DNA of 64,000 bases from an uncultured Victivallales bacterium (GCA_964475205.1 CAYYVQ010000005.1:6158-70157); one strand, 5' to 3'; positions 15,695 to 64,000 are shown, counted from the first letter of the stretch. Made by a program: numbers and translations. Notes: generated from the sequence alone by a model not told the origin.

Positions 15695-16049
15695 ATAAAA
15701 AGCCAGATAAGGCAAGCCGGTTGATCGACACAATGGCGAGTCCAGTCAGTCCCTAACAGAACTTGACAGATCAACCCTTTTTTCCCGCATCTTCTTTTGG
15801 CCCGGGCTAACAATTCTGCCAAAATCCGATAACGTTAAACCTGAATCCGGCAGTAGAAAACCACTAATGGACACTAAATAGCACTAATGTTTTGAAATAG
15901 CTGGAAAAAGCATCAAAAGAAAACTTCATGAGCACATTGAACCCTGCACCAAATGGGTGCAGTTGCATTGTGGATAATACCCTCATTTATTCGTGTCTAT
16001 TCGCCTGCCTGTGCGTGTCCGCACGCAGACAGGTGTGCATTCGTGGTTC

Positions 16050-16284
16050 AACCTATATACGGCACTTGAAATTCGGGAAGCGATGTATATTATTACAAAT
16101 AAGGAGTTTACAATTTATTGCGCCCCCACCCAAAGGGTGCGGGCGAGCTTCCCGAATTTCAAGCCGCAAGGGGTTGCCGATTTCACTGCATCTGCTTCGT
16201 TCTGAGGTCTTCGGCATAGTTACTATAGCCGAAAACCTCACGCCTTGCAGCTACAGCAAACTCGGCAACTGCCGTTTCTAGGTT
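16050..16284. repeat. MITE family E copy 1 (~230 bp, imperfect TIR AACCTATATACGGC / GCCGTTTCTAGGTT, internal 16-bp-stem hairpin)
   Basis: Identical (inverted) to 59511-59745. ORF-track ORFs 15928..16281 and 16053..16241 are repeat artefacts. Confidence 0.7.
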
Positions 16285-20145: not shown

Positions 20146-20223
20146 GCTTTCATTACTCTTCATTAAACTTTTGACACTACCGAATCGGTTTGATGATGTC
20201 AAGATCGGCGGCAACGCCATCAG

Positions 20224-20416
20224 CAATTCTCATTATGGCCTCTTTCCGCCAAAACCTATTTGTATAACGATGTGCGTAGTAGCGCGGGCTTCACCGAAGC
20301 CCAGCGCTCTTGGGGCCTCGGCTTCGGTGAAGCCGGGCCTACTCGCGCGTGGCTGCAATATCGTGCCGGAACTCTGGCCACGCCAAACGTGGCAAAATGG
20401 CCATAATGAGAATTGC
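20224..20416. repeat. MITE family C copy 1 (~190 bp, perfect 18-bp TIR GCAATTCTCATTATGGCC)
   Basis: TIRs and the central palindrome GGGCTTCACCGAAGCCC...GGCTTCGGTGAAGCCGGGCC. Second copy at 57204-57396. Confidence 0.75.
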
Positions 20417-27140: not shown

Positions 27141-29171
27141 TTAGAACTGGTGTTCAACACCGGCAAACGCCTGAAATCCGTAGTCCGGGAATCCCACAAC
27201 GGTAGAGTATTCGTCGTCAAGAATGTTTTCGAGCGAGGCGTACAGCCGCGTGGCCCGTTCTTTCCCAAGGAGGACTCCCGCCGTCATGTTCAGGTCCACA
27301 AAATCTCCCAGATCCTTGTACTTGCGGTCTTGGGCAAAGCGTTTGTTCTCGTATCCCGAAACGTATTTGCCGAAAATGTTCACATCAAGCCGACCGACCT
27401 GGCTGTATACACCTGCCGCAGTAATTACATCCGGAATTTCGCGAAGGTTCGACCAATCGCCGCCATTTGACTGTTCCGAATCCATCACGGTACCGTTGAC
27501 GAACAGTGTGAAGATATCCATGATCCGTGCCGACTCATACTCCATCTCCAAGCCGTATTGCCGGATATCCCGGTTTTCGTAAGCGTTGAACGTATCTCCC
27601 TCCCGGGTTACCTCAGTTGAGGTAAGAAGAATGCCGTCTTCACGAAATGTTGCAAAGCCGCCGACCTTTAAGCTGCCCAGCGCCGTATCGCTGAAGCTGA
27701 CTCCGCCATCGAGGATCGTGCGCGACTCGCGAGACAGGCTTTTGCCTTTTTCCGGGACAGCGCCGGGAGGCGCGTCGACAGAACCGACCGCAGCATGGGC
27801 ATACAAGGCTGTGATTTTCGATAGGCCATACTTTGCTCCTATTGTGCCGGTCATTACCGGATCTCCCCATTCATCTGTTATAGGCGTACTGAACAGTGAA
27901 GTTCCGCCGCCGGAGCGGTCATCTGCCACTGGACCGCCGAGCATATCGATATTGTTGTCGGTATAGTCGTGGTAATAACTCCTGGTGACGCGCAATCCGC
28001 CGTCCAGGGTTAACCGGTCCCATTGGTGTTCATCAATAACGACGCCGGAGATTGTTTCCACGTCCATTCGATTGCCCACATAGTAGCGTTTGCCCTCGGG
28101 AGCAACCCAATGATTGTACTGCACACCGGCTCGCAATGTGTTGTTGTCTGCAATCCTCCGTGCATGCAACACGCCTGCGTTGTATTCCCAGTCAACTTCG
28201 TCGCTTTGAATATCAGGTTTGGACGGTTTCGGATTGTCGCGTTGATAATCCATGTCACGACGTACATATCCTGTGTCAAAAGCCGTACTGGAAGTTTCAT
28301 CATGTCTCCATAGAGCGCGAAGGATTCCGCCATAAGAAGTTAATGGCGAGAATTCCTCGTTTTCGCGGTTCCTAATTTTTTTCTTGCCCGGATCTTGAAT
28401 TTTGCGAAGCTCCCGGTTTCCAGTCAGGCCGTAGCCGGTGAATTCCATGTGCAAGTTGTCGCCAACGTCCCAGCTCGTGGTTCCAAACACCGATGAGATC
28501 TGCTCGGCAGCGTTCTCGTCGTCCGGGCCATCGGTTGAATAGTGTTTTGCCCCGACAGTATAGTCGGCGTTTTCAAGCCTGTCTCCATGCACCAGGGAGG
28601 CACGATAGGTCCCATAGCTGCCGGCTTTGACATCAAGCAGGGTTGTCAACTCGTCGAACCGGCGCGGTATGACGTTAATGGCCCCTACCAGCCCTGCGTT
28701 CGGGCCGACCATGATGGCGCCGCCGGATCGCAGGATTTCGATCCGGTCAATTGCGGCGGCCGGAAAAAATGGAGGTATTGTTGTAAAGGCCCGTTGCCAG
28801 ACGCCATTGACTGCGATGTCCGGGTAAGGATAGATCTGGCCGCGAAAAGATGTGAACGATTTTTCCTTCCGTCCGCGTCTTTCAGTAAAAACTCCAGGCG
28901 CAAATTCCATTGCTTCCACCAGCGTACCACTGCTTTGAATACGAATATCCCTGGCTTCAACCGACGAAGTGGCTATGTCCAGAGAAACCGACTCGATAGT
29001 AGGAGTGTCCACGGGATCACGAGCCTCCTTTGGGGCTTTGACCACGATTTCACCCAATCGTGTGACCGTCCGGTTGGTGATAATCTCACTGTTTTCCTCA
29101 TCACCAGGGGCCAAGCCGCTTACAAAACACAAACATGCCGTTGCCAATCCAATTTTGCCCATGCACTTCAT
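27141..29171 (-). CDS. TonB-dependent outer-membrane receptor
   Basis: Signal peptide, plug-domain motifs, and a C-terminal beta-barrel ending in aromatic F. Confidence 0.8.
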   Translation of the reverse strand: MKCMGKIGLATACLCFVSGLAPGDEENSEIITNRTVTRLGEIVVKAPKEARDPVDTPTIESVSLDIATSSVEARDIRIQSSGTLVEAMEFAPGVFTERRGRKEKSFTSFRGQIYPYPDIAVNGVWQRAFTTIPPFFPAAAIDRIEILRSGGAIMVGPNAGLVGAINVIPRRFDELTTLLDVKAGSYGTYRASLVHGDRLENADYTVGAKHYSTDGPDDENAAEQISSVFGTTSWDVGDNLHMEFTGYGLTGNRELRKIQDPGKKKIRNRENEEFSPLTSYGGILRALWRHDETSSTAFDTGYVRRDMDYQRDNPKPSKPDIQSDEVDWEYNAGVLHARRIADNNTLRAGVQYNHWVAPEGKRYYVGNRMDVETISGVVIDEHQWDRLTLDGGLRVTRSYYHDYTDNNIDMLGGPVADDRSGGGTSLFSTPITDEWGDPVMTGTIGAKYGLSKITALYAHAAVGSVDAPPGAVPEKGKSLSRESRTILDGGVSFSDTALGSLKVGGFATFREDGILLTSTEVTREGDTFNAYENRDIRQYGLEMEYESARIMDIFTLFVNGTVMDSEQSNGGDWSNLREIPDVITAAGVYSQVGRLDVNIFGKYVSGYENKRFAQDRKYKDLGDFVDLNMTAGVLLGKERATRLYASLENILDDEYSTVVGFPDYGFQAFAGVEHQF

Positions 29172-32809: not shown

Positions 32810-33877
32810 CTATTTAATTTCACGTGAAAGTTTATCGATAAAAACGTTGTCAAGGCCGGCGATAAAATGCGCCAGCAATCTTCCCGTCCGTTCAACATCT
32901 TTAACCTGCAGCATTTCCACCGGTGTGTGCATGCTGCGCAAAGGAATACTCAGCAAAGCGGTTGGTATCCCGGCACGGGTTAGCTGTATGGCATTGGCAT
33001 CAGTGCCGGTGCCGCGGGTGCAGATTTCTGTTTGAAAAGGAATTTCATGTTGCAGGGCTGTTTTACGCAAAGCTTCAAACATTTCCGGGTGGATATTCGG
33101 CCCCCTGCACAACGCAGGACCTTTACCCAGTTCAACCGCATTTAACGCTTCCGGAATGCCGGGTTGTTTGCCGAAACCGACATCAATCGCAATTCCGATA
33201 TCCGGGGCAACACTGTAAGCGCCGGTAATTGCTCCGCGCAACCCGACTTCCTCCTGTACCGTGGCCACAGCGTAAACATCCCACGAATGGGTCAAATTGC
33301 GCAATTGCTCCATGCAGCAGGCAATTGCAGTGACCGATGCCCGGTCATCAAAGGCCTTGCCGCTTACATGACCGTTCTGTAACTCGGTGAATCCGCCGCG
33401 GATTGAAATCAAATCGCCTGGACGCACGTTCTTTTCCAGTTCTCTGGCGGTCAGGCCTGTATCAATAAAAAGCTCATCCATTGGCGCCGGTTTGGAACGT
33501 TCCTGTTCATTCAACACATGCGGCGGACGGGAACCGATAATTCCGGGCAACCGCCGCTTTCCGTGAACAAGCACCTCGCGTCCCGGCAATGTGCGCACGT
33601 CAAATCCGCCTACTTGTGTAAAACGGATGAATCCTTTCTCCAGAACTGTAACAATCAGCCCGATCTCATCCATATGCCCGGCAAGCATAATCCGCCATCG
33701 TGCTGTATTGCTCTTTCCGTGCCCCTGTTTCAAGGCAATCAGGTTTCCCATTGCGTCAACACGAACATCGTCCGCGAAGGCGCCGAACTGTTCGCGCACA
33801 ATCTCGCGAATCTCTTCCTCATAGCCGGAAACCCCGTTCGCCTCGGACAATTGTTTAAGAAACGAAACTGTGTTCAC
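32810..33877 (-). CDS. M42 family aminopeptidase, paralogue 3
   Basis: M42 family motifs. Confidence 0.8.
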   Translation of the reverse strand: MNTVSFLKQLSEANGVSGYEEEIREIVREQFGAFADDVRVDAMGNLIALKQGHGKSNTARWRIMLAGHMDEIGLIVTVLEKGFIRFTQVGGFDVRTLPGREVLVHGKRRLPGIIGSRPPHVLNEQERSKPAPMDELFIDTGLTARELEKNVRPGDLISIRGGFTELQNGHVSGKAFDDRASVTAIACCMEQLRNLTHSWDVYAVATVQEEVGLRGAITGAYSVAPDIGIAIDVGFGKQPGIPEALNAVELGKGPALCRGPNIHPEMFEALRKTALQHEIPFQTEICTRGTGTDANAIQLTRAGIPTALLSIPLRSMHTPVEMLQVKDVERTGRLLAHFIAGLDNVFIDKLSREIK

Positions 33878-54986: not shown

Positions 54987-55370
54987 TTATTCAGTTGCAT
55001 GGCGCTGGTCCGTATAGGATTCAAATGCAGGTACGCTGGCCAACAGCAACCATGATCCTGTTCCGTCTATGAGTTTACTCTTGAATCTACCCTGGAAAAC
55101 ATGACCGATCCTGTTGCGCTTTGCTTTGAACCACGCGCTGTAGCTGACATTCAGCCACTGAATTGACTGGCTGGCATTGGCATAGGGAGTTTGGATTATC
55201 AGGTGATAATGGTTGCAGAGAAGCACATAGGAATGAACACTCACGCTATATCGCTCTGTCATTTCCTCGAGCAATTCCAGAAAGTGTTCATAGTAACGAT
55301 TGGTAAAGAATATTTTCTTACGTTCTATGCCCCGGGACGTAACATGATACTAGCCCTGCCCTTTACCCAT
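54987..55370 (-). pseudogene. RAYT/IS200-like HUH transposase pseudogene (in-frame TAG at codon 7, C-terminal half missing)
   Basis: ATG-GGT-AAA-GGG-CAG-GGC-TAG then YHVTSRGIERKKIFF...CNHYHLII...HVFQGRFKSKLID, the canonical RAYT N-terminus with the HUH motif. No Y-x-x-x-N-P tyrosine region downstream. Confidence 0.55.
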
Positions 55371-55948: not shown

Positions 55949-57028
55949 TCACATTCTCAGCAGTACAGCCCCGCTGCTGAAACCGCCTCCTACAGCGCTT
56001 AAAAGGACAATATCGCCCTTTGTTATCCGGCCATCGCGGACGGCCTCACCCAAAGCAATGGGCACAGAGGCCGATGACGTATTCCCGACCCGATCCACGT
56101 TTACCACGACTTTCTCCATGGGACATCCCAAAACTTGAGCAATATTTTCGATAATCCGAATGTTGGCTTGGTGTGGAATCAGCCAGTCCACGTCCCCTAT
56201 ATCCAGACCTGTCTTTTGGAGCACGTCCCGGCTTGCCCGGGTAACGCCCTGGATGGCCACCTTGAAAACTATCTTGCCGTCCATCTTGATTACCCTGCCT
56301 TCAGCAGCCCTCAGCGTCGTTCTACCCACTGTCCCTGATCCTTCACACTGAAGAATGTCGGTGTACTGCCCCTGAGAGTACAGACTGACACCAAGCACTC
56401 CTGAGCGCGTATCAGCGCCTTCGGGCTTCTTGCGTTCCAGAACAACGGCGCCGGCGCCGTCCCCGAATAACACGCATGTTGTTCGATCCTGAAAATCAAG
56501 AATGGAAGAATATATCTCGGCGCCAATAACAAGAGCGTTCCTTGCGAACCCGGCCTGGATATGGGCATATGCTGAACTCAACGCAAAAATAAAACCACTG
56601 CAAGCGGCGCTGATGTCGTACGCATAGGCATTTTCCGCGCCGATCCTGCGTTGTACAAAATTGGCAGTGGCCGGCAGTCGCATGTCCGGCGTATTGGTGG
56701 CGAGAACAATGGCGTCAAGACCTGCAGGTGCAATCCCGGCTGCATTCAGAGCCTTGAGGCCGGCATCCGAGGCATAGTCCGATGTCCGGTCTGTTGTGTC
56801 GGCAAACCGCCGTTCGTGAATTCCCGTTCTTTTCCGGATCCATTCATCAGAAGTGTCCACCATCTTCTCAAATTCGGTGTTGGGAACCACGCGCTCTGGA
56901 AGCGCGTATCCCGTCCCTACCAAGCGTGTCTCAAATTGTTCCACCGCCGCCTCCTCTGCTTTTTCCAGGGCAGAATGCTTTCGGGCCGTGTCCCGTATCT
57001 TCTGGCCGTTTTGTTGAATTAGTGTCAT
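55949..57028 (-). CDS. fabH: 3-oxoacyl-ACP synthase III (KAS III) with a ~30-aa N-terminal extension, stand-alone (no other fab genes nearby)
   Basis: Active-site Cys context DISAACSGF, HQAN and N...S family motifs. Confidence 0.85.
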   Translation of the reverse strand: MTLIQQNGQKIRDTARKHSALEKAEEAAVEQFETRLVGTGYALPERVVPNTEFEKMVDTSDEWIRKRTGIHERRFADTTDRTSDYASDAGLKALNAAGIAPAGLDAIVLATNTPDMRLPATANFVQRRIGAENAYAYDISAACSGFIFALSSAYAHIQAGFARNALVIGAEIYSSILDFQDRTTCVLFGDGAGAVVLERKKPEGADTRSGVLGVSLYSQGQYTDILQCEGSGTVGRTTLRAAEGRVIKMDGKIVFKVAIQGVTRASRDVLQKTGLDIGDVDWLIPHQANIRIIENIAQVLGCPMEKVVVNVDRVGNTSSASVPIALGEAVRDGRITKGDIVLLSAVGGGFSSGAVLLRM

Positions 57029-57203
57029 TTACAATTCCTCTCTATCACTAAATGCTTTTGTCGTCGCAAACTCCCTTTGCCACATAAGTATCCAATATGT
57101 TCGTTACCAGGTGTAACAGAAGCGAGTTTTACTCCTGAGAAATAGGGACATACAATTTATCATCACTTGCTGCCATCGCGCAAGTGGTCCAGGATTCCGA
57201 GCA

Positions 57204-57396
57204 GCAATTCTCATTATGGCCTCTTTCCGCCAAAACCTATTCGTATGACGATGTGCGGGTAGTAGCGCGGGCTTCACCGAAGCCCAGCGCTGTTGGGGCC
57301 TCGGCTTCGGTGAAGCCGGGCCTACTCGCGCATGGCTGCAATATCGTGGCGGAACTCTGGCCCACGTCAAACGTGACAAAATGGCCATAATTATTG
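57204..57396. repeat. MITE family C copy 2 (right TIR partly degraded)
   Basis: See 20224-20416. Confidence 0.7.
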
Positions 57397-57556
57397 CTGG
57401 ATTCCGAGTTTGAGAAACACTGGTGCGAAGCCAGAAACGAACAGGCTATGGGCGATGCAATACATCTGACGGAAAGACGGCGTTCGGGCGAAAATAGTCA
57501 GTAGTCTCAGCCCCTGCGTTTAGCCTGTCAAATAAGTCAGTCAAAAGAGTATAGCA

Positions 57557-58531
57557 TTATATAGTCTGAGGCTCCATAACTGTGCCAGTCGAGGATATTC
57601 CAGGTTTTCTTTCAGATGCTTCGGGTTCCACTTTTCTTGCCTCTTTTTCCGAATCATGTAGCCGTTTCAGGCTTGGATAACGCCTGAAAGCCATAAACCT
57701 CATCAGACGGTCGCGAAGCCGAACGCGGCCGAATGGCGCCCATCCGCGATAGTAGCTGTGTCCGTAAGGATCGAAGTAGAAGTTATAAGGAACAGCTTTG
57801 ATCCCGGGCCTCTTGAGAAGCACACGAAGCGCTTCTGTTGCGATTATACCCGAAGACATCAGTATGGCCGATATAAGAGCAGGGCCCTTCTCCTTTTCAA
57901 AATCAACCGATGATGTGTCCATCTGCTTGGGATTAGGCAGCTTTGGAAGAATGCCGATCGCGAAGGCTATAATGCGCTCGGCACGTGTCATGCCGGGCTT
58001 GATGCCAAAGTACTGTTCAAACGTCATTCCTTTCGGGTCAAATATCTGAACAGAAGACCCGTATCCAATCGGTCCGGCGGTTATTGCGAAAATCCCTTTC
58101 TCCCGCGCCTTCTGAAAGATAAGTATTCGCGCGTCAACCTGGAAAAAGTCCACACCGTCAAGATAGATATCCGCTTTATCAAGGAACGAATCCACATTAT
58201 TCTCTCCGATGGCTTCAGAGATCACGGTTAATTCCACTTCGGGATTGATCTGGCGCGTCATCTCAGCCATGACTTCGGCTTTGCCGCGACCAATGGTGTT
58301 CACAAAGGCGCCGGCCTGGCGATGGAGATTCAGCGGCTCATAAATGTCAGGATCAGCAATAATGAACTTGCCGATCCCCATGCGGGCCAGAGTAAGCAGG
58401 TGATGACCGCCAACAGCGCCCATACCGGCTATGGCAACCGTGGCATTACGCAGTTTTTCCTGCTCTTCGCGCGCAATCAGCCCGATATTCCTGGAAACAG
58501 CTTCTTCTCTCAATTCCTTAGTCCAGATCAT
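57557..58531 (-). CDS. ThiF/MoeB/HesA family E1-like adenylyltransferase (no rhodanese or zinc-finger extension)
   Basis: IAGMGAVGGHHLLTLARMGIGKFIIADPD nucleotide-binding motif. Confidence 0.8.
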   Translation of the reverse strand: MIWTKELREEAVSRNIGLIAREEQEKLRNATVAIAGMGAVGGHHLLTLARMGIGKFIIADPDIYEPLNLHRQAGAFVNTIGRGKAEVMAEMTRQINPEVELTVISEAIGENNVDSFLDKADIYLDGVDFFQVDARILIFQKAREKGIFAITAGPIGYGSSVQIFDPKGMTFEQYFGIKPGMTRAERIIAFAIGILPKLPNPKQMDTSSVDFEKEKGPALISAILMSSGIIATEALRVLLKRPGIKAVPYNFYFDPYGHSYYRGWAPFGRVRLRDRLMRFMAFRRYPSLKRLHDSEKEARKVEPEASERKPGISSTGTVMEPQTI

Positions 58532-58549
58532 TTGTTGCCCCTTTCTTAT

Positions 58550-58600
58550 TGAAAAATTCGTATCTTCACCCTTATATGGTCAAAAAACGTCAAGTGTCAC
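58550..58600 (-). promoter_or_regulatory. conserved promoter-like motif copy 1 (minus strand: T-rich, GTGACA-N17/18-TATAAG, GGGTGAAGA.ACG.AATTTTCA), ~35 nt upstream of the ThiF-family start
   Basis: Three-way alignment with 60821-60872 and 63199-63240. Confidence 0.55.
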
Positions 58601-58662
58601 AAAAAAAAATCGATGAACCCAGGTCGTTAACCCGGACGGCAGACGCCGACCGCTCGCCTGCT

Positions 58663-59478
58663 CTACGCATGGGCATCGCTTTCCGGCCCAAAGCCAGGGG
58701 TGACTGCCGAACATGTTATTGCAATTGCTGAAACCCCGGCCGGATACAGTATATTTCTCTCGATGGTTTCCGAAATCGGCATGCTCAGGCCCATGTCTTC
58801 AACCATGTCTTGTATTTGGCGCAAAGAGTAGGATCGACGGCAGGAAACTAAACCATCCCAGAAAAACATAAGAGAAAACAAAGGCACGACATACGTGAAC
58901 AGCATCATCGTTGGCCAATCCCGGCGCCGTGCGACAAAAGGCAAGGTCAGCAATATGGTCAATGGCCCGACCAGCATGGAAATGAAACTCAACAGCGTGT
59001 TTCGAACATATTCCAGAATAAAAATGTCACGTCCCCGGCTGCAACTGTTTCTTATGATCTGTTTCGCTTGATCGACGTCAAAGTGGTGAAAGGAGTTGAT
59101 AAAAATCATCGGACAGGAATATTCCCCGTTGTCGGCCATGGCATCGACGGGTTTGGAAACATAGCGAATCTGTTGGTCCTTGTTTCGGTTGATTTTTTCA
59201 CACCATTCAGGATTCGGCCTGATATCGCTAAGAAGAAACCTTGTCTTTGCGTACGTCTCCCTTTTCAGATGCGAGACAATCAGTCTCAAAGGTTCACCCG
59301 ATCCAGAACCGTATTCCATCAAGGTATCCGATTTTGTTTCGCGAATGAAATTCGACAACGGCTTGACCCATAGTTTGTAGTATCCGAACCATTTGTAGCA
59401 CAGCACAAGATACCTGTGCAGATACACGCGATACCAGACAGGCGATCCGGGCCAGTCGCCAAACTCGAAAAGTTTCAT
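58663..59478 (-). CDS. class I SAM-dependent methyltransferase with C-terminal transmembrane segments
   Basis: Motif I LMEYGSGSGEPL. Start moved to MKLFEF (59478) because the ORF-track N-terminus lies inside MITE E. Confidence 0.6.
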   Translation of the reverse strand: MKLFEFGDWPGSPVWYRVYLHRYLVLCYKWFGYYKLWVKPLSNFIRETKSDTLMEYGSGSGEPLRLIVSHLKRETYAKTRFLLSDIRPNPEWCEKINRNKDQQIRYVSKPVDAMADNGEYSCPMIFINSFHHFDVDQAKQIIRNSCSRGRDIFILEYVRNTLLSFISMLVGPLTILLTLPFVARRRDWPTMMLFTYVVPLFSLMFFWDGLVSCRRSYSLRQIQDMVEDMGLSMPISETIERNILYPAGVSAIAITCSAVTPGFGPESDAHA

Positions 59479-59510
59479 CTTCGCCCCCGTAAACAGCTCA
59501 CGGCGGTTTA

Positions 59511-59745
59511 AACCTAGAAACGGCAGTTGCCGAGTTTGCTGTAGCTGCAAGGCGTGAGGTTTTCGGCTATAGTAACTATGCCGAAGACCTCAGAACGAAG
59601 CAGATGCAGTGAAATCGGCAACCCCTTGCGGCTTGAAATTCGGGAAGCTCGCCCGCACCCTTTGGGTGGGGGCGCAATAAATTGTAAACTCCTTATTTGT
59701 AATAATATACATCGCTTCCCGAATTTCAAGTGCCGTATATAGGTT
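59511..59745. repeat. MITE family E copy 2 (inverted relative to copy 1)
   Basis: See 16050-16284. Confidence 0.7.
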
Positions 59746-59807
59746 AAAAGCTTCCGACCTATTGTTATTCAGAGCTTGCAGGGGAATCTCAGCAAAGCGT
59801 CCCCGGA

Positions 59808-60788
59808 CTATGCCTCCAAACGTTCATTAGTGTCCGCCATCGGTTCAATTCCGAAATAAGGCGCCTCGTGTTCCGGCATTGGCCGATAGGCCGCTGCCAT
59901 GGTTTCTGCTAAAGCCGATTCGCGATCCGCGCTCCAGAAATGAGGATACAAGGTGCGTTCCTTCACCGAAGAGCCGCGACCGCCAACCCGTTTGACTTCG
60001 CGAGTCGGGATAGCCAGATCCAAGCACGCCAGAACGGCAGGCGCCCCCCCAACCCGCGGACACGTCTGTTGGGCGCCGCTCATTTCGAAACCCAGGGTCC
60101 GTTTATAATATTTCAGATGCCGCGGATGCACCTCAATCATGAAATCGGTATAGCCGCGCACACCTTTCGCGTAAATGTAGATCAAGTTGAAAAGCCGCAA
60201 GAGTACTTCGCGCGAATCCTTGCAATCCTTGTGCAACGCAAGCCGCGTCACCTCCGCCATGTACCGGCCCCTGGCGCGCATGCGGTTTGTCTCAGCGCGA
60301 TAAATCTCGTCACAGGGCAACCCCTTGTCAGAATCGAACACCAGCGAAACTGTGCCAACTATCGACCCGTTCTGGTCTTCGGCAAATATAGTAAAGGTTT
60401 CAGGCCCGGCATCGTAGGGCGATACCACCATGCCTGAATCGGCCTGCGCCAGCGAAACGCCGCTGTATATCTCATGGGCAAACCGATATACCCGTTCGCG
60501 ACTAACAATATCCGACGCCACGCTAAACCGGTAAACATCGCCCGAAACAGTCGCGATTTCAGTGATAAGTCCATCATCTTCACGTTCAATCCAGGGCATC
60601 TGCGTGGTCTCACACGGATCGGCCGGCAAAGAATTCCCAGCCTGTTGCCGCGTTATGCATATCCAGGAGTCCAGCTTCAAAGCCTTACCTTTTATTTCTG
60701 AACGACATTTCCCGTACCCCATCCTGGCCGGTTCGGCGCATTCTACTGTAAATTCGGCATTGTTCATCTTTTCTGATATGTCTTTCAT
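59808..60788 (-). CDS. autoinducer-synthase-fold GNAT acyltransferase resembling FeeM-type long-chain N-acyl amino acid synthases
   Basis: YRFSVASDIVSRERVYRFAHEIY, MAEVTRLALHKD, and the C-terminal EVHPRHLKYYKRTLGFEM (the PRH..FY.R.LGF pattern of N-acyl amino acid synthases). Start at MKDISEK with a GGAGGGG SD. The ORF-track start at 60989 is an over-extension. Confidence 0.5.
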   Translation of the reverse strand: MKDISEKMNNAEFTVECAEPARMGYGKCRSEIKGKALKLDSWICITRQQAGNSLPADPCETTQMPWIEREDDGLITEIATVSGDVYRFSVASDIVSRERVYRFAHEIYSGVSLAQADSGMVVSPYDAGPETFTIFAEDQNGSIVGTVSLVFDSDKGLPCDEIYRAETNRMRARGRYMAEVTRLALHKDCKDSREVLLRLFNLIYIYAKGVRGYTDFMIEVHPRHLKYYKRTLGFEMSGAQQTCPRVGGAPAVLACLDLAIPTREVKRVGGRGSSVKERTLYPHFWSADRESALAETMAAAYRPMPEHEAPYFGIEPMADTNERLEA

Positions 60789-60820
60789 CACATCCCCTCC
60801 CGAAATATTATCCGCCTCGC

Positions 60821-60872
60821 ATGAAAATTGCGTCTCTTCAGCCCTATATGGTCGGAAAACGTCAAGTGTCAC
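60821..60872 (-). promoter_or_regulatory. conserved promoter-like motif copy 2, ~55 nt upstream of the NAS-like gene start
   Basis: See 58550-58600. Confidence 0.55.
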
Positions 60873-60924
60873 AGAAAAAGGGCGAATGGCGCCGGGGATA
60901 CGGTGGTTGTTGGGGCGGCAAAGG

Positions 60925-62427
60925 TTATTTGACGCTGGAAAGGAGCATTTCAGGATGCATAACCAGGGCTTCTTTCGAGTCGAAAGCAAGCGTTGAACTT
61001 TTCACGGGGAAAACCCTGATCTGAGTGAATTGCGCAATCAAATCTTCTGCGGACAGCCACAGGGCAAAAGATGGCCCGGGCATCTTGAGCGTGGCAGACC
61101 CGAAATACATAAGCTTATCTTCCTGCCAGTAGGTCTTTTTAAAGACTTTGCCCGCGCCCCTTGATCGTGCATCCACAGCATACTCGATTTTCCCGATCTG
61201 CCACTTGTTTGGAGAAATACGGGGTTTCTTCTGTCTATAAAGCTGTTTCCATTTTGCGCTTTCTCCTGTTACACAGGACACATCTATCCTGGACATATTT
61301 TTTGTTTCTGTTGCACGGGAACCGAATGTGACCACAAATCGATCAACATCAATACTTTGCTTGCAAACCAGGTTAATCCACCCCTTGACGCCACGGGCAT
61401 CGATCTCAACCGATTTCTGTTTTTTTCCGTCCCTCATCACATCCACAATACGGATCCGGCTTTTCTCCGCCTCCGGCAGTTCATGAGCAACCCCGTCTCT
61501 TTTCTCCCAATACGGCTTCCATTGGGCAATCCCCGAACTGAAATCCTCAACAAAGATCGGCTTTCCAAAGACCGTTGCATGCCCCCGCTTGTCGGAAACC
61601 ACAAGTTCGGAGGCATGAACCATCAATGCTTCGTTGTTGTCCGTTTGCCATCGCATGCTTCCTTCCGTAACATGCAGTCTTGAGAATTCCTCCATAGAAG
61701 ACATCGCGAACCTGGTGCCGACCACTGTGGCGTTACCGTGTCCGGTCCCGACAACCATAGGCTTGCCCGGTTTTTGTTCCATAACGGACGCCGCCAGAGA
61801 GCCCTTTTTCAAGAACAGCCGCTTCTCCCCTTCGCTCGACACCTGACATCTGACGGAAGAGACTTTCCTGATCTCGACAACGGTGTTCCCCCTGTCCATA
61901 GCCAGGGAAACCCGTCCATCCCCTGCGGTTTCAAGCCAGCAGCCCCGGCGCCATAATTCATCGGTAAGGGTTGAAACAATATTGCCATCAAGATCCCTTA
62001 AGGTAACGGTTCCCTGCCGCGCCTTTAGCGTTACATTGCCGGTAACAGATTCAATGCCCTCCGCAGCGAACCAGATTCCAGCGCCGACAACCAGTAGCAC
62101 ACCGGCTGCCATCGCAAGCAGCGGATAGAGTTTTAATGATCTGCGCGACGCGCGTTTCTTTACATGATCCATTACACTTGCTTGAAACTCCGACCCCGGC
62201 AAATCCTGCTCCTGCTTGAGATCCGCCACCCTCTGCCTGACCCGGCTTTCGAAATCAGTCCTGTCGCACATGAGCAGTCGTCCAAGCAGGTCGTCGACAG
62301 AAAGCAGCTCATGCAATCGGCCTGACAATTCGGGATCCTTTTTCAAGTCCTCGATCAGTATAGCCAGCTCCTCCCCGGAAAGACTGTCCCGATCCTCAAT
62401 GAATTTTGCCACAACTTCACTATTCAT
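60925..62427 (-). CDS. FecR-domain anti-sigma factor (single TM helix, large periplasmic domain)
   Basis: N-terminal anti-sigma region, TM LLAMAAGVLLVVGAGIW, FecR-like domain. Overlaps the ECF sigma gene by 8 nt. Confidence 0.7.
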   Translation of the reverse strand: MNSEVVAKFIEDRDSLSGEELAILIEDLKKDPELSGRLHELLSVDDLLGRLLMCDRTDFESRVRQRVADLKQEQDLPGSEFQASVMDHVKKRASRRSLKLYPLLAMAAGVLLVVGAGIWFAAEGIESVTGNVTLKARQGTVTLRDLDGNIVSTLTDELWRRGCWLETAGDGRVSLAMDRGNTVVEIRKVSSVRCQVSSEGEKRLFLKKGSLAASVMEQKPGKPMVVGTGHGNATVVGTRFAMSSMEEFSRLHVTEGSMRWQTDNNEALMVHASELVVSDKRGHATVFGKPIFVEDFSSGIAQWKPYWEKRDGVAHELPEAEKSRIRIVDVMRDGKKQKSVEIDARGVKGWINLVCKQSIDVDRFVVTFGSRATETKNMSRIDVSCVTGESAKWKQLYRQKKPRISPNKWQIGKIEYAVDARSRGAGKVFKKTYWQEDKLMYFGSATLKMPGPSFALWLSAEDLIAQFTQIRVFPVKSSTLAFDSKEALVMHPEMLLSSVK

Positions 62428-62947
62428 GGATCATCCCCCGGCTCATATTATCCTGGATGCACTCCCGGAGACTTTCGCGGATCCGCAGCATCGCCATACG
62501 CACAGCGCCGGCTTTCATGTCTACAACGCGTGAAATCTCCTGCGCATTCAAATTTTTCTCGTATTTCAGTGATATAAGTTTTCGACTGCTTTCCGAGAGT
62601 TTCTGAAGACATACCTTGAGACTCTCGAACGCGCCTGCAAAGAGAGATGGCTCCCCGGAAGTCTCTGCCTCTGAAAGCAGTTCAGCGATGGCCTCGTAGC
62701 GCCTGGCCTGTTTCCTTTTTGTCTTGCGAAAATGGTTCATGCACAGGTTACGGGCAATGCCCTTCAGCCATCGAATCGGTATAGTGTCTTCAGGCATCTT
62801 GTGCATGCCCTTGTAGAAGGCCACGTAAACCTCCTGGGCGATATCATCAACCTCGTCCGAAGACACTCCCAGTCCGGCAATGTAAGCGCGCACCATGTGC
62901 TGGCTTTCACTTAGAATCTGCTCAAATTTTTCAAGGTCTTGCTTCAT
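62420..62947 (-). CDS. ECF-subfamily RNA polymerase sigma-70 factor
   Basis: Sigma-2 region (DIAQEVYVAFYKG) and sigma-4 region (LNAQEISRVVDMKAGAVRMAMLRIRESL). Confidence 0.85.
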   Translation of the reverse strand: MKQDLEKFEQILSESQHMVRAYIAGLGVSSDEVDDIAQEVYVAFYKGMHKMPEDTIPIRWLKGIARNLCMNHFRKTKRKQARRYEAIAELLSEAETSGEPSLFAGAFESLKVCLQKLSESSRKLISLKYEKNLNAQEISRVVDMKAGAVRMAMLRIRESLRECIQDNMSRGMIHE

Positions 62948-62953
62948 AATGCT

Positions 62954-63199
62954 TTAGCCTACCATTGCTTGTTGCGGGTAACAACCTGCAAATTCAGCGC
63001 TCTCCGTGAGTAATCTTATGATGTGTTCCTGTATCCAGTTAGAAGCTTTTGAAACGAGCGCCCAGGCTCTGCGGCGAAGTTCCAGGGTATCGGCTATTAC
63101 AACTTCATATTCATTGCAATTTCCAAACGTATATCGGCCGGAAACCGGCCATTTTACTGGAATCCCTGTCGAATATTGGACTGTTTTTAACGCCTTCAT
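62954..63199 (-). CDS. possible small ORF (82 aa) or long leader immediately downstream of motif copy 3
   Basis: The ATG lies directly after the conserved GGGTG of the motif. No SD, no recognisable domain. Confidence 0.2.
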   Translation of the reverse strand: MKALKTVQYSTGIPVKWPVSGRYTFGNCNEYEVVIADTLELRRRAWALVSKASNWIQEHIIRLLTESAEFAGCYPQQAMVG

Positions 63200-63240
63200 C
63201 ACCCTTATATGGACAAAAAGCAGCAAGTGTCACAAAACCA
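63199..63240 (-). promoter_or_regulatory. conserved promoter-like motif copy 3, heading the small-ORF / ECF sigma / anti-sigma unit
   Basis: See 58550-58600. Confidence 0.5.
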
Positions 63241-63290
63241 ACGAAAAAAAGCTTAAAAAAGATTGGTTGACACAAGACCGACCGGTCGGT

Positions 63291-63896
63291 ATGTTTAAAG
63301 CCATGAGTTCTAATAGTCATAAATCCAGCACAGGACGCGAAGAAAGAATTGCATCTTATGTGCATAAGGCTACCGGCTTGTTTGCGGCAAAAGGGTATCG
63401 ACAGGTGGGAGTTCAGGAAATTATTGATTGTCTTGGGCTCAGCAAGGGTGGATTTTATTGCTATTTTTCGTCCAAGGAGGATTTCTACATACAGATATGC
63501 AAGGCGCATTGTTCTGCAAACAGGCAACTTTTTGCAAATCTCTTGGATGGAAAGCAGCTTTGCCCTGAGACCATCCGGACAACGGCAGTTGCTCTGCTGG
63601 AATGGTTTCTGGATCATCCGGTGCAAATTCGCCTTATGATAGATTTTCACAATGAAAGCGATTCAGATGAAATCAGGAATGAACTCAAACGCCTCAATAA
63701 TGAGTGGATTAAAGTTATAACTTCGCTTGTTAACGCCTGCCGTGAGCATGGTTTTATATCCAACGCCATGCCTTCAGAAATGATAGCCCGCCAGTATATT
63801 GCTTTTTTTACGGGGTTATTGCTGCTTTCCGCGGTTTACCGTGAGAAAGAACGGATACTTAAACAATGGGAAACTTTCCTGGACTCTTTTTTGTGA
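63291..63896 (+). CDS. TetR/AcrR family transcriptional regulator, divergent from the ECF sigma unit
   Basis: HTH YRQVGVQEIIDCLGLSKGGFYCYFSSKEDF. Start at MFKAM or MSSN (63291/63303), and the ORF-track start at 63006 is an over-extension. Confidence 0.8.
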   Translation: MFKAMSSNSHKSSTGREERIASYVHKATGLFAAKGYRQVGVQEIIDCLGLSKGGFYCYFSSKEDFYIQICKAHCSANRQLFANLLDGKQLCPETIRTTAVALLEWFLDHPVQIRLMIDFHNESDSDEIRNELKRLNNEWIKVITSLVNACREHGFISNAMPSEMIARQYIAFFTGLLLLSAVYREKERILKQWETFLDSFL

Positions 63897-64000
63897 AGAA
63901 GGCGCAGTGACCCGGGACAGGGACAGAATATAAGATGAAAGAAAGAATACTGAAACTTCTGAAACAAATACTCTGGCACAGGAAAACAACCACCGGCGTT

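Follow-up and report, generated by a model that had tools for sequence, protein, structure and literature searches.

In a 64,000-nucleotide stretch of DNA from an uncultured Victivallales bacterium (hereafter the window), a locus encoding a sigma factor of the extracytoplasmic function (ECF) class, a membrane anti-sigma factor and two enzymes of lipid-type biosynthesis carries one promoter-like motif three times. We propose, with a probability of about 0.8, that the ECF sigma factor encoded here (62420-62947) reads the three copies as its target promoters and would thereby drive its own operon together with the two biosynthesis genes. The parts on which this argument turns are the following:

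63183-63240, minus strand: predicted promoter copy A, with -35 element TGTGACA (63234-63228), a 15-nt spacer and -10 element CCATA (63212-63208), then TAAGGG; heads the (81-aa ORF)-ECF sigma-anti-sigma unit (ORF, open reading frame)
60822-60879, minus strand: predicted promoter copy B, with -35 element TGTGACA (60873-60867), -10 element CCATA (60851-60847) and post -10 box CTGAAGAGACGCAATTTTCA (60841-60822); heads the FeeM-like gene
58550-58607, minus strand: predicted promoter copy C, with -35 element TGTGACA (58601-58595), -10 element CCATA (58579-58575) and post -10 box GTGAAGATACGAATTTTTCA (58569-58550); heads the ThiF-like gene
62420-62947, minus strand: ECF sigma factor of 175 aa (Pfam Sigma70_r2 and r4_2), predicted reader of the three promoters
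60925-62427, minus strand: membrane anti-sigma factor of 500 aa, with an N-terminal anti-sigma region, a Pfam FecR domain (residues 166-257) and a ~230-aa C-terminal region without a family match
59808-60788, minus strand: FeeM-like N-acyl amino acid synthase of 326 aa (hereafter NAS), behind copy B (PF21926 FeeM, 150.6 bits; PDB 2g0b FeeM, E = 4e-9)
57557-58531, minus strand: ThiF-family adenylating enzyme of 324 aa, behind copy C (PF00899, 147.8 bits; NF006077 PRK08223, 331.9 bits, cut-off 266)

Three copies of one motif precede three same-strand units

The three copies share the sequence TGTGACACTTG-N11-CCATATA(A/G)GG on the minus strand (63234-63203, 60873-60842 and 58601-58570). The core GTGACACTTGnnGnTTTnnnnCCATATArGG has exactly three minus-strand matches in the window, at 63233-63203 (A), 60872-60842 (B) and 58600-58570 (C), and in each of them a T directly 5' of the core extends the first block to TGTGACA. 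When the window was scanned with the degenerate core GTGACACTTGNNGNTTTNNNNCCATATARGG, tolerating up to three mismatches and taking the chance level from shuffled sequence, three matches were returned, each with no mismatch, and none was expected in shuffled sequence. A repeat search likewise groups A, B and C as a single 58-nt family (63183-63240, 60822-60879 and 58550-58607), over which B and C are 86% identical and A and C 67%. Measured from the end of CCATA, copy C lies 43 nt from the ATG of the ThiF-family gene (58531), copy B 58 nt from that of the FeeM-like gene (60788), and copy A 8 nt from the ATG of the 81-aa ORF and 260 nt from that of the ECF sigma gene (62947). An earlier note on this DNA had described the motif as occurring three times on the minus strand, as promoter-like elements heading three same-strand units; the three exact-core copies, with none expected by chance, confirm the first statement and their positions before gene starts bear out the second. 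Its gene assignments (ThiF family, NAS-like, ECF sigma/anti-sigma and a divergent TetR) proved correct by family searches.

We assessed confinement of the motif to this locus over the window and ~5 kb beyond it (L008). No further good copy was found within the window by a weight-matrix scan, and the motif has neither terminal inverted repeats nor an inverted-repeat (dyad) partner. For sequence collections, we used the 19-base pattern GTGACACTTGN4TTN5CCATATA against one genome per GTDB species and JGI metagenome contigs (596 Gb of genomes), which returned two genome and five metagenome matches, approximately the number expected by chance and none with flanking similarity. One extra match in the window to a looser form of the motif, TGTAACA-N16-CCATA at 33647-33675 on the plus strand (~0.03 expected in the window), runs antisense within an ORF (32810-33877) and is without the TAAGGG extension; it is probably a chance match and possibly an antisense start.

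The motif accompanies the sigma gene across species

Homologues of the sigma factor occur in metagenomes and in genomes of the Planctomycetota-Verrucomicrobiota (PVC) group at 51-64% identity, and we read the surrounding DNA for those on long enough contigs. The motif is present in all six readable loci (L011, L013, L015, L016, L017 and L018), whose sigma factors are 52-60% identical to that of the window; two of these, L017 and L018, were read only after the pattern had been fixed, and both fit it. TGT(G/A)ACA-N15/16-CCATA stands immediately 5' of the sigma gene in L011, L013, L016, L017 and L018, and in L015 it is a ThiF-FeeM-sigma-antisigma operon that has the motif upstream. A further copy precedes the ThiF gene of both L013 and L016; in L013 this ThiF gene is succeeded by one that is FeeM-like and 70% identical to its counterpart in the window. 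Copy A aligns with the sigma-gene promoters of six other organisms, and copy C has its orthologues in the ThiF promoters of L013, L015 and L016. A near-variant, TGTAACA-N17-CCATGA, occupies the same place in the cultured planctomycete Lignipirellula cremea (sigma 51% identical).

Across an alignment of 11 non-redundant sites from seven organisms, no columns other than T-G-T-n-A-C-A and C-C-A-T-A are invariant. The two blocks are separated by 15 nt in nine of the sites and by 16 nt in the other two, and every site lies on the coding strand upstream of a start codon, with the sigma gene of the relatives starting roughly 15-45 nt after the motif. The spacer ranges from T-rich to GC-rich across species and the upstream flanks are unrelated save for their A/T-richness. 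The -35 block contains AAC in L011, L017, L018 and L022, and GAC in the window, L013, L015 and L016.

A position weight matrix trained on the eight foreign sites only and run over ~128,000 window positions ranked the window copies first (B, 35.3 bits), second (C, 33.1 bits) and third (A, 28.4 bits), the next best match scoring 17.7 bits. A loose regular expression gave two off-target matches in 183 kb of related-locus DNA, against 1.4 expected. The fourth-ranked matrix match (57586-57550, minus strand; TGGCACA...GACTATATAATGC) lies at the 3' end of the ThiF gene, has a perfect TATAAT and might serve the FabH-like gene downstream as an ordinary promoter.

The motif stays with the ECF sigma gene where the genomic surroundings are unrelated (L011, L017 and L018), and the only regulators common to all motif loci are the sigma factor and its FecR-type anti-sigma; TetR, the MMPL genes and other neighbours vary. 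The motif is absent from the more distant paralogous modules L019 and L020 (sigma 25-34% identical), for which different ECF specificities are expected.

The locus's own ECF sigma factor is the favoured reader

When a two-block motif of fixed spacing and orientation stands before a sigma gene as well as the neighbours conserved with it, this usually marks an autoregulated ECF promoter. Because the sigma and anti-sigma factors are the only regulators that the motif loci share, the ECF sigma is the favoured reader, and the recurrence of the motif before the sigma gene and before ThiF/FeeM across species points to the autoregulated promoter of an ECF sigma with a FecR-type anti-sigma and a two-gene regulon. 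The compact co-regulated set suggested by the earlier note is supported, and the adjacent sigma/anti-sigma pair, which the note had named as a possible controller, is the likely one. Sigma dependence, transcription start sites, the signal and the product chemistry are in each case predictions made from sequence.

The best family model of the sigma factor is TIGR02989 ('Rhodopirellula/Verrucomicrobium family') with 121.9 bits, the next model reaching 69 bits, and its closest solved relatives are the ECF sigmas E, H and W. The anti-sigma gene overlaps the sigma gene by 8 nt, and its 500-aa product has weak anti-sigma NCBIfam matches and a hydrophobic stretch that, read by eye, corresponds to one transmembrane segment. 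Homologues of 491-528 aa directly follow the sigma gene in L013, L015, L016 and L018. The C-terminal (sensor) region has no Pfam match in six homologues, and a single-sequence AlphaFold model was unusable (pLDDT, a model confidence score, of 33).

In the mechanism that we propose, the co-transcribed FecR-domain anti-sigma (60925-62427) would hold the sigma factor at the membrane in the resting state, and an envelope or extracellular signal would free it. Sigma-RNA polymerase would then start at copy A, yielding more sigma and anti-sigma (positive autoregulation), at copy B, yielding the FeeM-like N-acyl amino acid synthase and perhaps also the product of a 271-aa ORF, and at copy C, yielding the ThiF-like ATP-dependent enzyme. 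The predicted promoter elements are a -35 of TGTGACA(CTTG), 15 nt, and a -10 of CCATA(TAAGGG). Within the region 4.2 helix, residue 151, which follows the invariant Arg150, is Met in four sigma factors with TGTGACA sites and Ile or Val in four with TGTAACA sites; this co-variation with the -35 may mark a specificity determinant, although the sample is small and confounded by phylogeny.

Several points weigh against assigning the copies to this sigma factor. The textbook ECF consensus, with AAC in the -35 and CGT in the -10, does not appear here, the -10 being CCATA without CGT and the -35 carrying GAC in the window, L013, L015 and L016; since group-specific deviations are known (ECF41 uses TGTCACA), this makes the fit to the textbook consensus poorer and leaves the fit to the class unaffected. 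The arrangement GTGACA-N18-TATAAG is also sigma-70-like, and recognition by the primary sigma is possible for the window copies taken alone. The sigma factor itself scores slightly below the TIGR02989 cut-off (121.9 vs 124.55 bits). The 86% identity of B and C, spacer included, comes partly from duplication of one ancestral ThiF-FeeM promoter and not from independent selection. The conserved box after the -10 is not accounted for by sigma recognition.

Alternative readings of the motif

Next after recognition by the ECF sigma comes a reading in which the primary sigma (sigma-70 type) recognises the copies as GTGACA-N18-TATAAG promoters that have a T-rich UP element and are rendered conditional by an activator or repressor at the post -10 box; we consider this improbable. 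It would accommodate hexamers that match at 5/6 and 5/6 with 18-nt spacing in A and C, the A/T-rich tracts 5' of the -35 in most sites, and the conserved ~25-nt box after the -10 in B, C and the orthologous ThiF promoters of L013 and L016, which sigma contacts do not explain. A sigma-70 consensus scan nevertheless called none of the three copies, because the -10 is without its final T. That base is normally critical and highly conserved in sigma-70 -10 elements, yet it occurs in two of the 11 sites, and across species the -10 register degenerates to TAGAGG, TATATG and TATAGG. The conserved CCATA, in turn, sits 3 nt upstream of the TATAAG register, which it overlaps by TA. A housekeeping motif would be expected before many unrelated genes, yet only three sites occur in 64 kb, and the motif moves with the ECF sigma gene when the genomic context changes (L011, L017 and L018). 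The earlier description of the motif as a strong housekeeping-type promoter (GTGACA/TATAAG) is thus unsupported: the invariant bases are those of TGTnACA and CCATA, the final T is rare and the scan called no copy.

We regard as less probable still that the motif is an operator through which a non-sigma regulator, either the divergent TetR or a CRP/FNR-type protein reading TGTGA, co-regulates the three units. A CRP-like TGTGA half-site does lie inside TGTGACA, the TetR gene is divergent from copy A, and the post -10 box might possibly serve as a second site; the dyad partner is absent from the motif, however, and its fixed orientation and distance to the start codon, with two blocks at a constant 15-16-nt spacing, are promoter geometry. 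Two features on the far side of copy A bear on the TetR version of this reading:

63291-63896, plus strand: divergent TetR-family regulator (family search)
63277-63290: perfect 14-bp palindrome ACCGACCGGTCGGT inside the predicted tetR promoter; likely TetR operator (predicted)

A palindrome enclosed by a regulator's own promoter is the classic autorepression layout. Here the predicted tetR promoter on the plus strand (TTGACA 63267-63272, 17 nt, TATGTT 63290-63295) encloses ACCGACCGGTCGGT, which is likely to be an autoregulatory TetR operator. The palindrome is unique in the window as a perfect copy, its one other match (29065-29078) having two mismatches, and it sits upstream of copy A, 43 nt from the TGTGACA, with no copy near B or C. 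No homologue was found in related loci that keep the motif when we searched them by tblastn with the window's TetR, and their gene tables agree. Because its own palindrome is near A only and the motif-bearing relatives have no TetR, we view TetR as a neighbour with its own operator and not as the reader of the motif; a functional link, such as control of product export, could still join the two. Control by TetR, which the earlier note had offered beside or together with the sigma pair, does not find support, since related motif loci have no TetR, the motif is without a dyad and the only strong palindrome sits in the tetR promoter. The predicted tetR promoter would imply a near-leaderless tetR start at 63303 and not at the annotated 63291. 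Beyond the window (L008 64-5907), the genes after tetR encode an MMPL/RND-type transporter, a LolA-like/DUF1329 protein and an ankyrin+DUF1302 protein, a row that may form an export system for a hydrophobic product.

Least probable is that the copies are a small mobile or recently duplicated repeat, akin to miniature inverted-repeat transposable elements (MITEs) or repetitive extragenic palindromes (REPs), or a chance similarity, without regulatory meaning: MITE-like repeats do occur in the window, two of them within the locus (59511-59748 and 57202-57391), and B and C are alike even in their spacers, but the motif is without terminal inverted repeats and is not repeated elsewhere in the window, all three copies stand at gene starts, the seven matches in the 596-Gb genome and JGI metagenome scans have unlike flanks and are about as many as chance predicts, and the motif holds orthologous positions in six other organisms while the flanks diverge. 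The scattered MITE family that the earlier note had named as the case against its own proposal was accordingly not seen, either as more copies in the window or as more than chance matches in the collection-wide scans.

A conserved box follows the -10 element of copies B and C

The similarity of B and C extends ~25 nt past the -10 as (G/C)TGAAGAnACGnAATTTTCA, of which these are the sole two occurrences in the window, and the post -10 conservation GTGAAGAnACGnAATTTTCA that they share is found nowhere else in it. The ThiF promoters of L013 and L016 retain much of the box as GTGnAGACAGCGnAAnnTT(T)CA, though their spacers and upstream flanks differ from those of the window, and of the box only CCATATAAGGG recurs in the sigma-gene promoters. 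The conservation beyond the -10 that the earlier note had reported for two copies is thus real, being confined to B and C in the window and largely kept in L013 and L016. From the retention of the box in ThiF/FeeM promoters, set beside the bare CCATATAAGGG of the sigma promoters, we infer that it probably begins near the transcription start and would span the first ~20 nt of the ThiF/FeeM mRNAs. A conserved leader hairpin was considered and rejected: RNAalifold found no conserved pairs in five ThiF/FeeM leaders, and L013 and L016 show no compensating changes for the UGAAGA/UUUUCA stem of the window copies.

Part of the B/C identity seems to reflect common descent, from an ancestral layout with one promoter before a ThiF-FeeM operon, as in L013 and L015; in the lineage of the window the ThiF and FeeM-like genes lie apart, with one promoter copy each. 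Conservation of the box between species argues for an extra constraint, which may be the site of a second regulator or a sequence requirement at the 5' end.

The two putative target enzymes probably act in one pathway

Among solved structures, the ThiF-like protein is closest to the ATP-dependent cyclodehydratase TcdA. FeeM-like genes stand next to ThiF-like genes in L013, L015, L019, L020 and L021, fusions of ThiF with FeeM also occur (P0134 and the PRK14852 architecture), and in many PVC-group bacteria the two are either neighbours or fused. By analogy with acyl-oxazolone biosynthesis, the two enzymes probably act in one pathway, in which the first would N-acylate an amino acid and the second would activate or cyclise its carboxylate. 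No ORF between 55949 and 63896 has a nitroreductase-superfamily flavin desaturase domain, and because this desaturase is absent we describe the locus as one that may work like the acyl-oxazolone pathway and do not assign it as a member.

The same enzyme pair recurs under other regulators. In L019 (1107-11642), three paralogous ECF sigma-FecR anti-sigma-ThiF(-FeeM) modules stand in tandem on one 11.6-kb contig, with sigma factors 26-34% identical to that of the window. In L021 (4401-10993), FeeM-like/ThiF-like/methyltransferase modules lie beside three sigma-54 enhancer-binding proteins and are preceded by good sigma-54 promoters (TGGCnn-N5-TTGCT), TGGCCTTCGGCTTGCT and TGGGCATCCCTCTTGCT. The FeeM-like/ThiF-like pair therefore appears to be a cassette under dedicated signal-responsive control by differing regulators, ECF sigma factors in some loci and sigma-54 activators in another lineage.

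Other features of the locus

Two further minus-strand reading frames lie among the three units:

62954-63199, minus strand: 81-aa orphan ORF, or 255-nt leader, between promoter copy A and the sigma gene; no relative
58663-59478, minus strand: 271-aa ORF with no Pfam family, a weak NF004851 match only and no promoter copy of its own

In a search of 1.84 billion representative proteins the 81-aa ORF matched itself alone, and the related loci do not have it. We rejected it as a real gene on these grounds; it is probably not a conserved gene, and a long leader is the more likely explanation of the interval. A structured leader was rejected in its turn, as the RNA fold of the 255 nt that follow copy A is unremarkable (z = -0.47); this stretch occurs nowhere else in the window. 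For the 271-aa ORF, the related loci contain no homologue; it is possibly co-transcribed with the FeeM-like gene, and its membership of the regulon is uncertain.

The locus also contains two repeats of other kinds. The first (59511-59748, 238 bp) separates the FeeM-like gene from the 271-aa ORF and recurs inverted, at 99.6% identity, at 16047-16284; it has a perfect 17-nt inverted repeat (59632-59648 / 59714-59730) and a very strong fold (z = -7.5), and looks like a recent MITE-like insertion; it carries a sigma-70-like TTGAAA-16-TATTAT on the minus strand. The second (57202-57391, 190 bp), within the 528 nt that separate the ThiF stop codon from the FabH-like (KAS III) gene at 55949-57028, is 94.7% identical to 20221-20407 and has 27-nt inverted arms at 57261-57326. 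Both repeats belong to MITE-like families of the source genome, and the promoter motif is not among these. An IS200-like Y1 transposase fragment (54987-55274, minus strand; PF01797, 25.8 bits) may be related to the REP/MITE-like repeats of the window. Rfam searches, at gathering thresholds over the whole window and by E-value over 57000-64000, returned only a tRNA elsewhere and a spurious microRNA match.

Implications for regulation of the putative lipid cassette

To our knowledge, the PVC phyla have very many ECF sigma factors and almost no mapped promoters. The present comparison assigns a predicted promoter, TGT(G/A)ACA-N15/16-CCATA, and a putative two-enzyme regulon to an uncharacterised, PVC-restricted ECF sigma lineage. 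It also suggests that the FeeM-like/ThiF-like pair is a recurrent PVC cassette, driven here and in relatives by ECF sigma/anti-sigma pairs and sometimes present as several modules in a row. The conditions under which these lipids are produced, and possibly their role, thereby become experimentally approachable, and the sigma/promoter pair could be moved to a heterologous host.

A further reading, which we consider unlikely, is that the module is a self-contained, positively autoregulated small-molecule signalling circuit, in which the lipid product or its effects on the envelope would be sensed by the extracytoplasmic domain of the anti-sigma. If so, the parts of the circuit would be the ECF sigma, a FecR-type anti-sigma with a sensor domain of no assigned family, a ThiF-like enzyme and a FeeM-like synthase that shares its fold with LuxI-type autoinducer synthases. 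The sigma would induce the enzymes for an N-acyl amino acid or oxazolone lipid, giving a quorum-sensing-like loop with an ECF sigma replacing the LuxR-type receptor. The three tandem modules of L019 would then be parallel orthogonal channels, and the neighbouring TetR-MMPL-LolA-like genes would export the product.

Comparison with known systems

An autoregulated ECF sigma with a local regulon is a textbook circuit type. What appears to be new is the specific promoter predicted for this PVC sigma lineage and its conserved coupling to the FeeM-like/ThiF-like pair, neither of which we found described in literature searches.

Acyl-oxazolone pathways offer the nearest parallel for the enzymes. TyzA/TyzB of Mycobacterium tuberculosis and OxzAB of Pseudoalteromonas rubra combine a FeeM/acyl-homoserine lactone (AHL)-synthase-like N-acyltransferase with a ThiF homologue for N-acylation and ATP-dependent cyclisation to an acyl-oxazolone, and the M. 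tuberculosis tyz cluster adjoins an mmpL gene, mmpL9 (PMC10404671). The locus resembles OxzAB and TyzABC in pairing such an N-acyltransferase with a predicted ATP-dependent enzyme of the ThiF family, and the tyz cluster in being adjoined by an MMPL transporter gene. Unlike them, it has no nitroreductase-superfamily desaturase (TyzC, or the NTR domain of OxzB), and it would be under ECF sigma control, which is not described for those clusters. Planctomycetes produce N-acyl dehydrotyrosines (stieleriacines) from NAS-containing clusters, and these compounds act on biofilm communities (PMC7293339). As in those clusters and among the NAS genes linked to PEP-CTERM, a FeeM-like NAS gene here belongs to a cluster, predicted to be regulated, of a PVC-group bacterium; in contrast, the description of the stieleriacine cluster mentions neither ThiF nor an ECF sigma/anti-sigma pair (PMC7293339), and no PEP-CTERM or exosortase genes were seen at the locus.

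Among sigma/anti-sigma systems, the pair recalls the FecI/FecR type of cell-surface signalling (ECF05-10; ECF239-243 in the 2021 classification; PMC7826278), in that the ECF sigma gene is followed by an overlapping gene for a putative single-pass membrane FecR-domain protein. It departs from that type in having no TonB-dependent transducer or iron-uptake gene at the locus, in the extra ~230-aa C-terminal region of the anti-sigma, in a best sigma model that is the PVC-specific TIGR02989 and not a FecI model, and in a promoter that is not of the AT-rich type used by FecI and PvdS.

The closest likeness for the promoters themselves is with ECF41 and RpoE7. ECF41 sigma factors use TGTCACA-N16(+/-1)-CGTC upstream of the sigma gene and of a target gene, and a target located upstream shares one promoter with the sigma gene (Wecke et al. 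2012, PMC3426412); for Sinorhizobium meliloti RpoE7/EcfR7, promoters with a -35 of TGTAACA have been mapped by transcription start site at its own gene and at a divergent operon (PMC6180224). The system described here would share with these a promoter in two parts, with a spacer of 15-17 nt and a group-specific -35 of 7 nt (TGTnACA type), a motif before the sigma gene and before one or two neighbouring targets, and a very small regulon; as in ECF41, the L015 locus has its target upstream in the same orientation and a single promoter for the whole operon. It differs in the -10, which is predicted here as CCATA in place of CGTC or CGAAT, and in its control, with a 175-aa sigma and a separate FecR-domain membrane anti-sigma where ECF41 sigma factors have no anti-sigma and bear a regulatory domain fused at the C terminus. 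The targets differ as well: those of ECF41 are a carboxymuconolactone decarboxylase, an oxidoreductase or an epimerase, whereas those proposed here are a FeeM-like and a ThiF-like enzyme.

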